64,000 nucleotides of DNA, taken from an uncultured Veillonellaceae bacterium. GTDB lineage: Bacteria > Bacillota > Negativicutes > JARBTT01. The notes beneath the pieces are model-generated. The model saw only the letters and a program-made list of their open reading frames with translations. It was not told where the DNA came from and searched no databases. The translations under genes and the position numbers were made by a program. Location of the stretch: NCBI GenBank assembly GCA_963805085.1, contig CAWDTA010000002.1, positions 704,001 through 768,000 on the forward strand. Direction: 5' to 3'. How positions within the stretch are numbered: position 1 is the first letter of the stretch; each line of letters begins with the position of its first letter. Of the stretch, positions 2,803 to 54,989 are shown in pieces.

Positions 2803-3495
2803 TTATCCAAGCGATCTTGCTAGAAAAAATGCTACTGCTGAAGCTATACTCCCAATAACGGTAGTTTGAATAGCACTTTTCCAGGGTTTGTTTCCCATAA
2901 ATCTCCCCTTTAGATAGCCAAAGATAAATAAAGCGGAGACTGTGCAGTAGACAGACCAGGTTAGTCCATCCGTAATATTTGCAAACACCATATAAGGAAA
3001 CAGCGGCACAAAGCCACCAACAGCGTAAGCCGCAGAGATTGTCAGAGCGCTATATAATGCACGGCGCGGCTCAGGCCTTTCTAAGCCCAGCTCAAATTTC
3101 ATCATAAAATCAACCATAGCAGTAGGATTTTGCTCCAGTGACTTAATTAAAGGGAAGCTTGCTTCCTTTGAAACACCATAAGCAGCAAAGATATCCGCGA
3201 TTTCCTGTTTTTCATCTTCTAGCCGAAACTCTGTTTCCTGCCGTTCTCTCTGTAATTCACTGTCATAATGTTCGTTTTCACCGCGAGCCGCAAGATAACC
3301 GCCAAGCCCCATGGAAATAGAGCCAGCTACAATTTCCGCAAGTCCTGCAGTAACAACAAGCCCAGTGGATGAAGCGGCACCTGATATCCCGGCTGCAAGC
3401 GCAAAAGGCACAGTCAGCCCATCTGACATGCCGAGTACTATATCCTTAATAAAATCAGACGAAGTAAAATGATGTTCTCCATGCACTTCTGCCAA
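2803..3495 (-). CDS. VIT1/CCC1 family iron/manganese transporter
   Basis: DIVLGMSDGLTVPFALAAG, GSISMGLGGYLA, MMKFELGL motifs. Confidence 0.9.
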   Translation of the reverse strand: MAEVHGEHHFTSSDFIKDIVLGMSDGLTVPFALAAGISGAASSTGLVVTAGLAEIVAGSISMGLGGYLAARGENEHYDSELQRERQETEFRLEDEKQEIADIFAAYGVSKEASFPLIKSLEQNPTAMVDFMMKFELGLERPEPRRALYSALTISAAYAVGGFVPLFPYMVFANITDGLTWSVYCTVSALFIFGYLKGRFMGNKPWKSAIQTTVIGSIASAVAFFLARSLG

Positions 3496-3585: not shown

Positions 3586-3668
3586 AAAACAATAAAGAGG
3601 AATCCTAATTACTTCTACCAATTAGGATTCCTCTTTATTGTTTTTATTGAAAAATTTTATTTTTTTAC
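3586..3668. repeat. Hairpin-plus-tail repeat, copy A (others at 5723-5838 and 9615-9701)
   Basis: AAAGAGGAATCCTAATT...AATTAGGATTCCTCTTT; the 42-nt segment 3622-3663 matches 9654-9695 at 37/42 ungapped. Confidence 0.75.
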
Positions 3669-3903
3669 ATACTGCTGCTTTATATGATGAGTATATTATA
3701 AAAAAATATTATGATGATTGCCCTATTTAGTTACTGAAATAATGTAGCTATTTAAGACTTTATTTTTGTGGTAAAAAACAAGTCTGACGTTCCCTTTTTA
3801 ACAGCATGATCGTAATAAAAGAGACTATCAAGGTGGCGAAAAATTAAAAAAATACAATAAAAAACATGATCCTTGTGATAAAAAATCATGTTTTAGCCTA
3901 CTT

Positions 3904-3935
3904 TTGCTTGCAATCCCCAAGAAATGTAATATAAT
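3904..3935 (+). promoter_or_regulatory. Putative sigma-A promoter for a long structured leader
   Basis: TTGCAA (3908) N16 TATAAT (3930-3935). Confidence 0.55.
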
Positions 3936-3951
3936 AAAAAATAAGGTGGAA

Positions 3952-4049
3952 ATAAAAAAAGTCGCCGTGTCCCGAGAGTGTTGACGCACTCTCAGGCACG
4001 AGCAGGTGGTACGAGCACCTACACGTAACAGCTAGCTGTCTACGACGAC
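3952..4049 (-). ncRNA. Putative ~95-nt cloverleaf antisense RNA
   Basis: Own promoter TTGTAA-N17-TATAAT (4083-4055); closing stem, three hairpins and a U-tract; three A.C mismatches on + become G.U pairs on -. Confidence 0.65.
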
Positions 4050-4054
4050 AATTT

Positions 4055-4083
4055 ATTATACCGTGCTTTTCCCTTGATTACAA
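4055..4083 (-). promoter_or_regulatory. Sigma-A promoter of the antisense RNA
   Basis: Minus strand TTGTAA-17 nt-TATAAT; predicted +1 falls at the first base of the closing stem. Confidence 0.7.
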
Positions 4084-4165
4084 GGGAGATAGTCCGTTCG
4101 CTTGGTATAATACGATTGAAGTTTTGGCAGAGGCTTAGCGTCTGCATGCAATCAAGATGAAGTAT

Positions 4166-4206
4166 AGCGCATGTGTAGGTTGGAAAACCCACGCATGCGC
4201 TTTTTT
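4166..4206 (+). terminator. Leader terminator (attenuator candidate)
   Basis: AGCGCATGTGTAGGTT-GGAA-AACCCACGCATGCGCT followed by T-run. Confidence 0.75.
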
Positions 4207-4298
4207 AATTTCCCCTGAAACAAACTGTATGTTGGTTTTTTCTATCTGCATCAGCGGATAGAAGAAACCACGTGCAGAATGATGAAGGGGGAAATAAA

Positions 4299-4454
4299 TT
4301 GGTAACAGTACAAGGTAGTAAAAAGCTATGGGCAAGGTATCGCACCAGCGTGTGGCGAGGAAGCCTCCTCGCCACAACCAAGGGGAGAGGTTCGTTCTAT
4401 TTACAAGGGACAAGATATGTTTTTTGGGAAAACAGAGGTTCTATAAATGTATAG
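4299..4454 (+). CDS. Small basic hypothetical protein (51 aa)
   Basis: RBS GAAGGGGG then TTG at 4299; overlaps start of the next ORF. Confidence 0.5.
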   Translation: MVTVQGSKKLWARYRTSVWRGSLLATTKGRGSFYLQGTRYVFWENRGSINV

Positions 4455-4770
4455 AATCTTTAGAACACCAAAAGCCACGATTATTGCTCAGGAAGTAGAG
4501 AACACTGATTTTACAGTTAAATTGCTTACAGATTTAGATTGCAAAGAATATGTGATGATCAAATGGCAAGATACAGTTAATATATATAATTTTTCGCTAG
4601 TTGGTCAGGTCATTGAAATAGCTGACGAAATTTCATTAGAAGAGTTTAGAGAAATTACCTATGCGAAAATATATAAGGAATCATTAGAGCAGGAAATCAA
4701 ACCTAACAGTATGGATTCTCTAAAGTTCGGTTGGAAAAATTTTCTAGAAACAGACACAACTGGCAGCTAA
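4447..4770 (+). CDS. Hypothetical protein (107 aa, acidic)
   Basis: RBS GAGGT, ATG coupled to upstream ORF, strong terminator follows. Confidence 0.65.
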   Translation: MYRIFRTPKATIIAQEVENTDFTVKLLTDLDCKEYVMIKWQDTVNIYNFSLVGQVIEIADEISLEEFREITYAKIYKESLEQEIKPNSMDSLKFGWKNFLETDTTGS

Positions 4771-4792
4771 TACCTGCCAGTTGTGTTTTTTT
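4754..4792 (+). terminator. Intrinsic terminator
   Basis: ACACAACTGGCAG...CTGCCAGTTGTGT plus T-run. Confidence 0.8.
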
Positions 4793-4826
4793 ATGGACAA
4801 ATGAGAGACTTCATAAAATTTTGTGC

Positions 4827-5681
4827 AAAACAAGGGACAGGGGTTATGTTTCAAGCTTTCCAAATCCATGTTGACGACAGTCTCGTTATTCGCGCTATCT
4901 GGCGTATATTGGCACCATCAACTTCTTTCAGGGCTCTCAATATGTGATCTTGTTTTTCCCTCATTTCATTACAAATTTTTATCGCATCAATGCCGAATTG
5001 ATGTCTGACCATTTGTCGAAGATGGACATCACTCACATTTACTTTAACTTCCGGAATTTCCATACAGACATCGCTGTTCGTTTCCCGTAAAAACTGTACA
5101 AATCGTCCAATCGCTTCATCAGGTTTGTCAGAAAACATGTTTAAGGCATATTCCTTGTCAACGATTTGTGCGCCCTCTATATATTCACTATAACTACTCC
5201 ATTTATAAGCCTCTATATCGCTTGCGATTTTTGCCTTTATCGGGTTCTGGTGAATATAGCGCAGAACTTTCAAAAAATAGCTGTCTGTTTCTATAGCTTC
5301 GCTTTTAAATCTCTCTTAAAATAAATGACCGCATCGTTCATGCTTACGATTATACCATATAACGTAGCTTGAACTAACTCGTTGTATCATCATACTAATA
5401 GACTCTTGGGTTTCTTGTACCAAGATGTGTATATGGTTATCCATTAAACAATAGGCAAAAATTCGACATTGGCTGATTTCTTTGTATTTTGTGAGGTCTT
5501 CGATTAATTTCAGTCGATCTTCATCATCTTCAAAAAATGCTTTGCCGATTGATCCCGCGTAATATAATATGATATATTCCACTGTTACTTTTTTCTCTTG
5601 CTTTTCTTGCCAATTTCCTCACCTCTGAGAAAGTTATATCATTTCGCTTATGCCGAAACAATGTCCCTGTCCCCATGTTTT
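4827..5681 (-). mobile_element. IR-flanked HUH tyrosine transposase element (RAYT/TIRYT-like), copy 1
   Basis: Imperfect inverted repeats with GGGACAGG core at 4827-4852 and 5655-5681 flank the transposase. Confidence 0.7.
4851..5613 (-). pseudogene. REP-associated tyrosine transposase (Y1_Tnp) pseudogene
   Basis: TTG start MARKAREKSNSGIYHIILRGIN, frameshift, YCLMDNHIHIL (HUH), in-frame stop in GHLF*ERFKS, YIHQNP catalytic Tyr motif, C-terminal HTH. Confidence 0.85.
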
Positions 5682-8926: not shown

Positions 8927-8965
8927 TAGATAGGATAGAACGTATGCCAATTAGAGTTTGCGCAA

Positions 8966-9593
8966 TGGGACAAGGGGACAGGTTTGCTGTCCCACTGATA
9001 AAAGAGAATAAAGAATCAATAGACCAAGTGATAAAACGAATTAGTAGTAGCTATGTATATTGGTATAATCAAAAATATCAACGGTGTGGGCATTTGTTTC
9101 AAGAGCGATATAAGAGTGAAGTTGTCGAGACAGATGCATATTTTCTTATGGTTTTGAGATACATTCATCAGAATCCGGTAAAAGCAGGAATTACCAAAAA
9201 TGTAGGTAGATATTTGTGGAGTAGTTATCATAATTATGTCGGTATACCAGGTATTACAGATATAGAGTTTGCGTTAGAAAATTTTTCGAGTGACAAAGCA
9301 GCGGCGACAAAATTATTTATAGAGTATACAAATGAAAACAATGCAGATGAATGTTTGGGTTGTAGAGAAAAAGTGATTGTATCCGATCAGAAAATAATGA
9401 AATATTTAAGTGAAATGGGAATAACAACGATTAGTCAATTGCAACGATTAAATAAAGAGCAACGGGATAATGTAATCCGAAAGATAAAAGAAAAGGATGG
9501 CATTACGATAAGGCAATTAGCAAGGATAACTGGAATTTCTAAAAGTGTAATTGATAGATTGTAGTGGGACAACAAACCTGTCCCTTTGTCCCA
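8966..9593 (+). mobile_element. IR-flanked HUH tyrosine transposase element, copy 2 (5'-deleted)
   Basis: 31-bp inverted repeats 8966-8996 and 9563-9593 (29/31) with GGGGACAGG core. Confidence 0.8.
8995..9564 (+). pseudogene. REP-associated tyrosine transposase fragment lacking N-terminus and HUH motif
   Basis: YVYWYNQKYQRCGHLFQERYKS and YIHQNP present; homology starts abruptly at the left IR. Confidence 0.8.
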
Positions 9594-53498: not shown

Positions 53499-54989
53499 AT
53501 GACTATGACAAATATTCCACAAGTAAAATTCGGTATCATTTCTGTAAGCCGTGATTGTTTTATCATTACCTTATCAGAAAACAGAAGGAAATCAATTGTT
53601 GAAGCTTATACCAAAGAGCATGGTGATATCTATGAAACACAAACAACCGTAGAAAATGAGCAAGATATGCTGAAAGCCGTCCAAGAAGTTAAAGAGGCCG
53701 GCTGTAACTCGCTGATTGTCTTCCTTGGTAATTTTGGCCCTGAAACACCGGAAACCCTTATTGCTAAAAACTTTGACGGACCGGTTATGTATGTAGCTGC
53801 TGCTGAAGAATCTGGCAAAGACCTCATCAATGGTCGTGGCGATGCGTATTGCGGTGTTTTAAATTGTTCCTATAACCTCGGACTTCGTAAAATCAAAGCG
53901 TTTATTCCTGAATATCCGGTAGGAACAGCTGACGAAATTGCTACGATGATCCATGAATTCGCGCCAGTCGCTCGCACACTCATCGGTCTTTCCAGCCTCA
54001 AAATCATTGCCTTCGGACCTCGTCCGCAAGATTTTTTTGCTTGCAATGCACCGATTAAACCACTATATGATATCGGTGTCGAAATCCAGGAAAATTCAGA
54101 GCTTGATCTGCTTGTTTCCTACCGCGCCCACGCCAATGACCCTAGAATTAAAGACGTAACTGCTTCAATGGCTGAAGAACTTGGCCATGACGGCAATAAC
54201 TATCCTGATCTATTACCACGTATGGCACAATATGAACTTACGCTTCTCGACTGGATCGAAAAAAATAAAGGTGCTAGCAAATACGTTGCCTTGGCAAATA
54301 AATGCTGGCCAGCTTTCCCATCTGAATTTGGCTTTGAACCATGTTATGTCAACAGCCGTCTCGTTTCTCGCGGTATTCCTGTTGCTTGCGAAGTCGATAT
54401 CTATGGAGCGCTTAGTGAATATATTGGTATGTGCGTAAGCGAAGATACTGTAACACTACTTGATATTAACAATTCCGTACCAAAAGATCTTTTTGAAGAA
54501 AATATCAAGGGCAACTTTGACTATGAATTAAAAGATACTTTCATGGGCTTCCATTGCGGTAATACACCACTTTGTAAACTTGCCAAAGGTGCTGTAAAAT
54601 ACCAGTTGATTCAAAATAGATTGCTTGAAAATGGCGGTACTCCTGATATCACTAGAGGCACACTTGAAGGCGATATCGCTGCTGGACAAATTACCTTCTT
54701 CCGTCTTCAAAGCACCGCTGGCGCACAGCTTCGCTCTTATATCGCCCAAGGTGAAGTCCTTCCCGTAGCCACTCGTTCTTTCGGCGGGATTGGCATTTTT
54801 GCAATTCCTGAAATGGGACGCTTCTATCGTCATGTTCTAATCGAAAAACAATATCCGCATCATGGCGCTGTTGCTTTTGGTCATTATGGCAAAGCTTTAT
54901 TTTCAATCTTTCAATATTTAGGTATCAATGACATTGCCTTTAATCAACCAAAAACAATGCTCTACCCAACTGAAAATCCATTTGCATAA
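53499..54989 (+). CDS. L-fucose-isomerase-fold sugar isomerase, probable non-classical xylose isomerase (XylA-II type)
   Basis: VSRDCF, GNFGPE, GRGDAYCG, CEVD, FHCGNT, YPHHGAV; sits with xylB and xynB. Confidence 0.8.
   Translation: MTMTNIPQVKFGIISVSRDCFIITLSENRRKSIVEAYTKEHGDIYETQTTVENEQDMLKAVQEVKEAGCNSLIVFLGNFGPETPETLIAKNFDGPVMYVAAAEESGKDLINGRGDAYCGVLNCSYNLGLRKIKAFIPEYPVGTADEIATMIHEFAPVARTLIGLSSLKIIAFGPRPQDFFACNAPIKPLYDIGVEIQENSELDLLVSYRAHANDPRIKDVTASMAEELGHDGNNYPDLLPRMAQYELTLLDWIEKNKGASKYVALANKCWPAFPSEFGFEPCYVNSRLVSRGIPVACEVDIYGALSEYIGMCVSEDTVTLLDINNSVPKDLFEENIKGNFDYELKDTFMGFHCGNTPLCKLAKGAVKYQLIQNRLLENGGTPDITRGTLEGDIAAGQITFFRLQSTAGAQLRSYIAQGEVLPVATRSFGGIGIFAIPEMGRFYRHVLIEKQYPHHGAVAFGHYGKALFSIFQYLGINDIAFNQPKTMLYPTENPFA

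Follow-up and report, generated by a model that had tools for sequence, protein, structure and literature searches.

In the plasmid systems pT181 (RNAI) and pIP501 (RNAIII), an antisense RNA of 85 to 140 nt is made from a promoter in the middle of a long leader, and a pre-emptor in that leader pairs with the 5' arm of a terminator located just before the gene (PMC5703833). Antisense attenuation of genes other than rep is also known, so the lack of a rep gene is not in itself novel: at IRS1 of pCF10, Anti-Q and prgQ have convergent promoters, and a branched small RNA enhances leader termination ahead of non-rep genes at a single plasmid locus tied to PrgX and pheromone (PMC3181467). Among toxin-antitoxin (TA) systems of type I, Helicobacter aapA/IsoA occurs as several chromosomal copies, each with an antisense RNA over the 5' untranslated region; specificity for the cognate partner comes from two kissing loops, the Shine-Dalgarno (SD) sequence is under the control of long-range mRNA folding, and IsoA blocks translation of a 3'-processed mRNA for one family of hydrophobic peptides (PMC5416894). 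In hok/mok/Sok and ldrD/ldrX/RdlD, an upstream overlapping open reading frame (ORF) couples translation to the main gene, and the antisense RNA acts upstream (PMC8167048). SymR of Escherichia coli covers the ribosome-binding site and start codon of symE, which is under LexA control (PMC4147584, PMC8167048). In these two reviews, as searched, the word "termination" has 0 occurrences for type I antitoxins.

The whole stretch of DNA analyzed here, 64,000 nt long and called the window below, contains a cassette of ~900 nt with a leader at its head. The cassette resembles pT181/pIP501 attenuation and the hok/aapA-type multicopy modules combined and is a member of neither family. As in pT181 and pIP501, a predicted antisense gene with its own promoter lies in the leader, and the candidate pre-emptor lies inside the antisense-covered region, pairing in the nascent fold only. 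Unlike them, the cassette has no rep gene beside an origin (the cargo clusters contain no Rep), sits among chromosomal neighbors, occurs in up to 24 copies with distinct loops, has a separate anti-SD segment and a 5'-3' pairing, and has no match in Rfam or the plasmid collection. Whereas Anti-Q is one locus, the cassette is dispersed and cargo-swappable, with no regulator gene seen. It differs from aapA/IsoA in its leader terminator, its activating long-range pairing, and its soluble, unrelated cargos, and from hok/mok/Sok and ldrD in that no 3' fold-back element or processing step is seen, a terminator is present, and there is no membrane toxin. Its 5' element, predicted to free the SD by capturing the anti-SD, resembles tac/ucb of hok. 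With symE/SymR it shares a SymE-family cargo in 15 of 107 copies under a predicted cis-antisense RNA, but the antisense target lies 250 to 400 nt upstream (3952-4049, against an SD at 4286). Cis-antisense RNA against a small-protein mRNA, and an mRNA fold in which the SD is sequestered, are predicted here as in type I TA systems; unlike in the classical members, the ORFs are not small hydrophobic membrane peptides.

A sequence-only reading of the window had proposed an antisense attenuator of the pT181/pIP501 type. Conservation, covariation, and nascent-RNA folding support attenuation; the view of a single locus missed both a family of elements and a second, translational switch. The features of the cassette are as follows.

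3861..3894, strand not given: upstream inverted repeat with 10-nt arms, from the sequence and the 13-copy alignment
3908..3935, plus: sense sigma70-type promoter, TTGCAA-16-TATAAT (-35 at 3908-3913, -10 at 3930-3935), with a predicted +1 at ~3942
3944..3961, plus: 5' leader segment, predicted to pair in the ON fold with the terminator U-tract and anti-SD (~4199-4216), with one A·A mismatch here
3952..4049, minus: predicted antisense RNA of ~98 nt, a closing stem and three hairpins with a U-tract at the end
3981..3986, plus: hypervariable loop L4, proposed specificity address 1, with a YUNR motif in the window copy
4009..4015, plus: hypervariable loop L3, proposed specificity address 2, unpaired in the ON fold
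4017..4026, plus: candidate anti-terminator (pre-emptor), with its partner at 4171-4180, inside the antisense-covered region
4055..4083, minus: antisense promoter, TTGTAA-17-TATAAT (-35 at 4083-4078, -10 at 4060-4055)
4167..4206, plus: leader terminator, stem 4167-4200 and U6 at 4201-4206
4207..4216, plus: candidate anti-SD directly after the U-tract, with the ORF1 SD as partner across a long hairpin (4224-4279)
4286..4295, plus: ORF1 SD, paired in the OFF fold and free in the ON fold
4299..4454, plus: ORF1, 51 codons with a TTG start, basic (pI 11.4), without a membrane helix
4447..4770, plus: ORF2, 107 amino acids (aa), acidic (pI 4.6), its SD and ATG inside a hairpin (4434-4461) overlapped by the ORF1 end
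4752..4794, plus: 3' terminator and end of the cassette; similarity between copies falls off after ~4780

The inverted repeat at 3861-3894 is possibly an insulating terminator or an operator; at its site some copies have a different hairpin in the 13-copy alignment. In the window copy, the antisense -35 falls within an 18-nt palindrome (4070-4087), which also overlaps that -35 in close relatives and has a variable 4-nt center; the palindrome could be an operator or merely a hairpin of the sense RNA.

We think it quite likely that these features constitute an antisense-controlled dual switch. The sense promoter would produce a leader of ~360 nt. Without bound antisense RNA, 4017-4026 would grab the emerging 5' arm of the terminator and polymerase would read through; the leader 5' end would then pair with the U-tract and anti-SD, freeing the ORF1 SD, and ribosomes on ORF1 would open the hairpin covering the ORF2 start. 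A cloverleaf RNA of ~98 nt, made from the opposing promoter, would kiss the two variable loops and abolish both activating pairings. With the antisense RNA bound, the terminator would form, and any read-through RNA would drop into a stable fold in which the SD is sequestered. Copy-specific loops would leave each of up to 24 copies deaf to the antisense RNAs of the others, and the swappable cargo would most likely be growth inhibitory.

Within this genome, the stretch 3880-4800 recurs as 13 near-full copies with 80 to 100% identity, one further copy is split over two contig ends, and one is truncated; a search with model R1 likewise gives 15 antisense units. Similarity between copies starts near 3860 and fades beyond the terminator at 4752-4794. 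The element was found in 10 of 40 relatives by DNA search and in 27 of 151 genomes of the class by model R1, with between 1 and 24 copies per genome. In 150 genomes drawn from elsewhere in the phylum, model R1 gave 0 hits in a search of low sensitivity (26 candidates scored per genome, strict filters). An exact pattern search in GTDB returned 104 stretches; among the 80 listed by name were members of Sporomusa, Pelosinus, Propionispira, Propionispora, Anaerospora, and Massilibacillus, as well as Desulfosporosinus, Desulfitobacterium, and unclassified Bacillota. The same pattern matched once in IMG/VR, and blastn against plasmid and phage collections gave no match to the element. In the window, Rfam had 0 matches at the gathering score; the 18 subthreshold matches were at chance level by E value, and none was to a plasmid antisense family. 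A literature search of listings and abstract openings found no description of the element. SymE and Negativicutes are absent from the main text of Weinberg 2017 (PMC5737381), while its supplements or other motif catalogues could hold the motif. The element is a dispersed, cargo-swappable family rather than a single locus. We regard this family as real and apparently undescribed, its members being predicted dual switches under antisense control, with loops that differ from copy to copy and cargo that can be exchanged.

Some copies depart from the standard layout. Two matches 2.2 kb apart (L096) are tandem copies with the same cargo family and different loops. An orphan copy (G000:C2:1478955-1479135; L019, L226) keeps the sense promoter, cloverleaf, and antisense -10, lacks a terminator and cargo, and has a hydrolase gene after it. 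In a decayed cassette (G000:C2:798860-802139, L227), the leader remnant, 98% identical from the -35 palindrome to the terminator, lies directly against a RAYT gene, and between this remnant and ORF1-ORF2 sits the reverse transcriptase of a group II intron. Cargo genes or fragments without a leader, DUF6809-like or ORF2-like, were seen at G212:C1:11708-12175, G218:C1:4084669-4085060, and G000:C5:37059-37232 and 53989-54319.

Both promoters named in the sequence-only reading are present. A scan of 2.5 kb found 8 promoter-like sites against 8.2 expected; thus, each promoter alone is at chance level, and the support comes from conservation. Among 124 copies with full flanks (9 of 133 were dropped for short flanks or lack of a terminator), the sense -35 is TTGCAA in 101 and the -10 is TATAAT in 91 and TATACT in 13. 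The opposing -10 is TATAAT in 122, and its -35 starts with TTGT in 115; 112 copies have a 17-nt spacer, and the first base of the stem follows 4 to 7 nt beyond the antisense -10.

On the minus strand, the cloverleaf (4049-3961) with its U-tract folds at -45.1 kcal/mol (z of -4.9, 0 of 200 shuffles), compared with -36.6 kcal/mol (z of -3.3) on the plus strand. In alignment A1 of 131 copies, 98.6% of the cells of the antisense fold are paired, double changes occupy 169 cells against 33.6 after shuffling, and in helix P4, 7 of the 10 pairs show double changes. Because the search pattern fixed columns 8-36 of the alignment, the count was redone on 16 off-pattern copies plus the window copy, which gave 10 pairs with double changes, in all four helices, in an alignment that leans towards the model. 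The minus-strand cloverleaf ending in a U-tract stands as first read, with four rather than three G·U pairs. Minus-strand cells hold 517 G·U against 12 A·C (243 against 9 for pairs outside the pattern), an asymmetry that points to an RNA on this strand. The window copy scores 112.7 bits with model R1. In conclusion, the predicted antisense RNA is well supported by conservation and covariation. Among public RNA runs, four had shares of 0.04 to 0.06, as contigs only, which carry neither strand nor ends.

These results bear on a different view, that the element is a nonautonomous mobile repeat or a sense-only structured leader, in which the cloverleaf and inverted repeats would work at the DNA level or in cis, and lack of constraint would be all that makes the loops vary. 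The many dispersed copies would suit it, as would the RAYT gene found within 2 kb of 3 of the 15 copies here, compared with 2.6% of random sites. However, by the G·U/A·C asymmetry, the cloverleaf belongs to a minus-strand RNA and the long-range pairing to a plus-strand RNA, the opposing promoter retains both hexamers and their spacing, and the loops of near-identical paralogues diverge far more than the rest of the leader. We regard a mobile repeat or sense-only leader as very improbable. The extended -10 at 4103-4111, from which a second short RNA had been suggested, is present in 8 of 13 own copies and in 0 of 111 elsewhere, and its predicted folding partner is the complement of the antisense -10; we reject the second RNA.

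The leader terminator is present as a stem at 4167-4200 followed by six U residues, and its 5'-arm motif follows in 131 of 133 copies. The mean hairpin energy is -22.6 kcal/mol, and 122 of 124 copies have 5 or 6 U within the 8-nt tail. A terminator scan did not pick up the window's stem, probably because of a bulge and the loop. The proposed anti-terminator pairs at 10 of 10 positions (4017-4026 with 4171-4180, one G·U); a helix of equal length arises in 37 of 300 dinucleotide shuffles, so that the case from one sequence is weak. Loss of this pairing in homologues would have spoken against the original proposal; 9 or 10 of 10 positions pair in 124 of 124, with the upstream side fixed by the search pattern. 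In all four diverged copies fetched from G247, both sides have changed and 10 pairs are kept with a bulge. Since the helix is nearly invariant, it barely covaries.

With the full terminator present, equilibrium folding favors the terminator in 124 of 124 copies (mean P of 0.95 unblocked and 0.99 with the antisense region blocked). The anti-terminator dominates only when the 5' arm alone has emerged (P > 0.5 in 100 of 124 copies and 0.98 in the window copy); in 24 of 124 it is not dominant even in the nascent RNA, and in G247 P ranges from 0.01 to 0.94. For the window, the OFF fold, with the terminator formed and the SD paired, has -153.9 kcal/mol; the ON fold, fully nested with both activating helices and with the SD and both loops free, has -141.5 kcal/mol. 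As the terminator wins at equilibrium and the ON fold lies 12 kcal/mol above the OFF fold, the switch must be kinetic, and a route by which stored mRNA would be activated after gene loss is not evident. The anti-terminator of the sequence-only reading thus holds as a pairing and, as a competitor of the terminator, only kinetically. Conservation, covariation, and nascent-RNA folding support a predicted terminator/anti-terminator sensitive to the antisense RNA.

Two long-range sense pairings add a predicted second switch at the level of translation. Between the leader 5' end and the U-tract with the bases after it, 118 of 124 copies could be anchored and the other 6 could not; 98.0% of the cells in these 118 are paired, a level that shuffled partners, at 96.2%, reached in 0 of 1,000 shuffles. 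A-U to G-C changes occur in 9 copies. Sense-strand cells hold 46 G·U against 7 A·C, which points to an RNA on the plus strand for this pairing. The bases beyond the U-tract that pair with the leader 5' end are present in read-through RNA only. For the anti-SD and SD, 100 copies with assigned cargo comprise CCCC-GGGG (63), CCUCC-GGAGG (15), CCCC-GGAGG (8), CCUCC-GGGG (0), and other classes (14, partly via misanchoring). Own anti-SD/SD pairs average -12.3 kcal/mol against -11.7 for shuffled pairs (0 of 200). Because the copies are related to one another, shuffle tests, those on both pairings included, exaggerate significance.

The same data raise the question of whether the antisense RNA, though real, is limited to effects on translation or decay or to promoter interference, with the terminator as a constitutive leaky valve; binding would then change the fold of the leader so that the SD is hidden, as happens in pSK41 RNAI or aapA/IsoA. 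That equilibrium favors the terminator with or without antisense RNA, that the best sense-strand covariation belongs to the 5'-3' and anti-SD/SD pairings, and that some lineages have weak tails (4 or 5 U in 40 of 124) all speak for this view. Against it, the pre-emptor lies inside the antisense-covered region, and its complementarity to the terminator arm is kept across a variable spacer of 118 to 261 nt among the copies listed and recurs in compensated form in G247. We hold this view to be decidedly unlikely.

The pair of variable loops is unique in 15 of 15 own copies and in 24 of 24 copies of G259, and 127 distinct loop pairs occur among 131 copies. Among the 15 own copies, loop identity is 46% compared with 96% for the rest; of the 105 pairs of copies, 2 share L3, 3 share L4, and none share both. 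For the two nearest paralogues, the differences number 5 and 4 among 13 loop positions, compared with 3 and 2 among 335 other leader positions. In one orthologous pair (L024 and L274), the loops are identical despite 16 differences elsewhere, which, as a single case, argues against a mere mutation hotspot. Certain L4 sequences recur between genomes (16, 11, 8, 8, and 8 times), suggesting a limited repertoire or exchange between copies. The U-turn motif YUNR in the target loop, which we take to be a criterion for pT181/pIP501-type attenuators, is found in the sense L4 of 58 of 131 copies (19 of 55 distinct sequences against 9.1 expected); the antisense L4 likewise has it in 19 of 55, and L3 favors the antisense side. 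By analogy with aapA/IsoA, we infer that kissing of these loops confers specificity in the cassette.

In the sequence-only reading, the leader gates two unknown ORFs and no rep gene; this agrees with our searches, in which neither ORF has a Pfam or NCBIfam match, and PHROGs gave hits only at E values of 0.13 to 0.37. The best 19-aa hydropathy is 0.01 for ORF1 and 0.94 for ORF2, values below those of a small hydrophobic membrane peptide. Several relatives do not preserve the frame of ORF1. The SD and ATG of ORF2 lie within a hairpin overlapped by the ORF1 end in 16 of 22 anchored copies; together, these two observations suggest that ORF1 is probably a leader peptide coupling translation to ORF2, like mok. 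ORF2 has few relatives (8 representatives, 7 credible) and no Atlas match, and its dN/dS of 0.66 (12 own copies) or 0.50 (21 copies) indicates weak purifying selection. With an ORF2 model at pLDDT 59, no solved chain reaches a Z of 5 (best, 4.7); a MazF-like fold was set aside, as its rows at Z of 3.4 to 4.3 are not meaningful.

The same leader stands ahead of at least six unrelated small-gene families, SymE-family toxins included. Among 107 copies with enough downstream DNA, the cargo belongs to the ORF2 family in 25 (22 with a detected ORF1), is SymE-like in 15, and belongs to a 61-aa family in 13, to three helical families in 21, 16, and 5, and to a 55-aa family in 5; 7 are unassigned. Pfam SymE_toxin scores above its cutoff in all three SymE-like cargos tested; the window cargo is not SymE, which occurs only in relatives. 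DUF6809 matches three of three members of the first helical family below the cutoff, the second helical family has only sub-0.9 Atlas leads (DUF6664, DUF6809), and six other tested cargos had no Pfam match. No literature was found under "DUF6809." Unlike LexA-controlled symE, the cassettes have a Firmicutes SOS box, searched with what we take to be its consensus, in 0 of 124 copies. One locus (L243, G259:C1:2871750-2872900) carries a helix-turn-helix (HTH)-like protein behind the same leader; L109 and L039 have odd cargos, an ORF that resembles a regulator and whose start, as judged by eye, is of the ACT type, and a 64-aa protein of no known family.

Whether the switch with a toxin-type cargo makes up a self-contained, dispersed type I TA-like module, whose antitoxin would act by attenuation, we consider an evenly balanced question. 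Counted against a toxin-type cargo are the 92 of 107 cargos that are not SymE, the HTH-regulator-like one, and an ORF2 without known family, fold, or membrane helix and under only weak purifying selection.

Own copies are placed stand-alone among unrelated genes, with insertion sequence fragments near several. Judged by mean distance, there is no sign of a link to tRNA genes, the nearest of which is 5.3 kb away. Two copies lie beside phage lysis genes: one own copy sits between tail-collar genes and an amidase, and the IMG/VR copy, with a SymE-like cargo, has an amidase gene before it and a recombinase after it, names that were read from the sequences. At one locus of the Pelosinus group, the cassette is present in two genomes, and the downstream flank occurs without it in three others; the window locus has no congener flank synteny in G001 or G004. 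In the 13-copy alignment the element ends are ragged, no terminal inverted repeats or target duplications are seen, and empty-site junctions stay above base resolution. Directly 3' of the cassette, the window has a RAYT/IS200-like tyrosine transposase gene in two pieces (4851-5273 and 5316-5582, minus strand); a second partial RAYT gene lies 3.4 kb further on (8944-9564, plus strand), and the genome has ~25 RAYT loci. On the other side, a VIT1-family gene (2803-3495, minus strand) points away from the cassette in its transcription, and upstream of this gene, at 3592-3638, lies a long perfect hairpin rich in A/T. Directly upstream of another copy are genes for a family 2A encapsulin shell and its cysteine desulfurase cargo (L214:1295-3860; G000:C2 ~1989400-1991960).

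Placement and cargo leave room for a variant in which the same dual switch drives a nontoxin cargo: on entering a cell without matching antisense RNA, the element would release a burst of a small regulator or antidefense protein and then shut itself off, and loops would be diversified so that residents do not presilence a newcomer, following the logic of heteroimmunity. An ON fold reachable only during transcription suits expression on entry better than killing after loss. The cargos are diverse small proteins without annotation, many of them acidic or helical, with the HTH-like one at L243, and two copies adjoin prophage lysis genes. However, no integrase, relaxase, or rep gene was found among 64 of 105 flanking ORFs scanned with NCBIfam, 27 of them also with Pfam; apart from the one in IMG/VR, there is no plasmid or phage match; and SymE-family cargo recurs. 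We judge this entry-burst reading rather unlikely. Returning to the toxin role, we give it about the same chance as its alternatives, an entry-burst role or translation-only control, taken together. That the cassettes form an undescribed TA-like family, in which an RNA antitoxin would act through transcription attenuation and an anti-SD switch, with one regulatory frame reused for six or more unrelated small proteins (some of which could represent new families of toxins) and diversified at two loops into up to 24 mutually orthogonal channels in one chromosome, is a proposal that we make tentatively, at a little under an even chance.

Most known cases of antisense-driven attenuation are single plasmid loci, and a chromosomal, cargo-swapping family that joins attenuation with type I features would extend both classes. 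It would nominate the DUF6809-like, 61-aa, 55-aa, and ORF2 families as candidate toxins or entry-burst effectors and would hint at the way in which these Firmicutes control SymE-like genes. With their 127 distinct loop pairs, the copies are a natural library for studies of kissing-loop specificity and for orthogonal RNA regulators.
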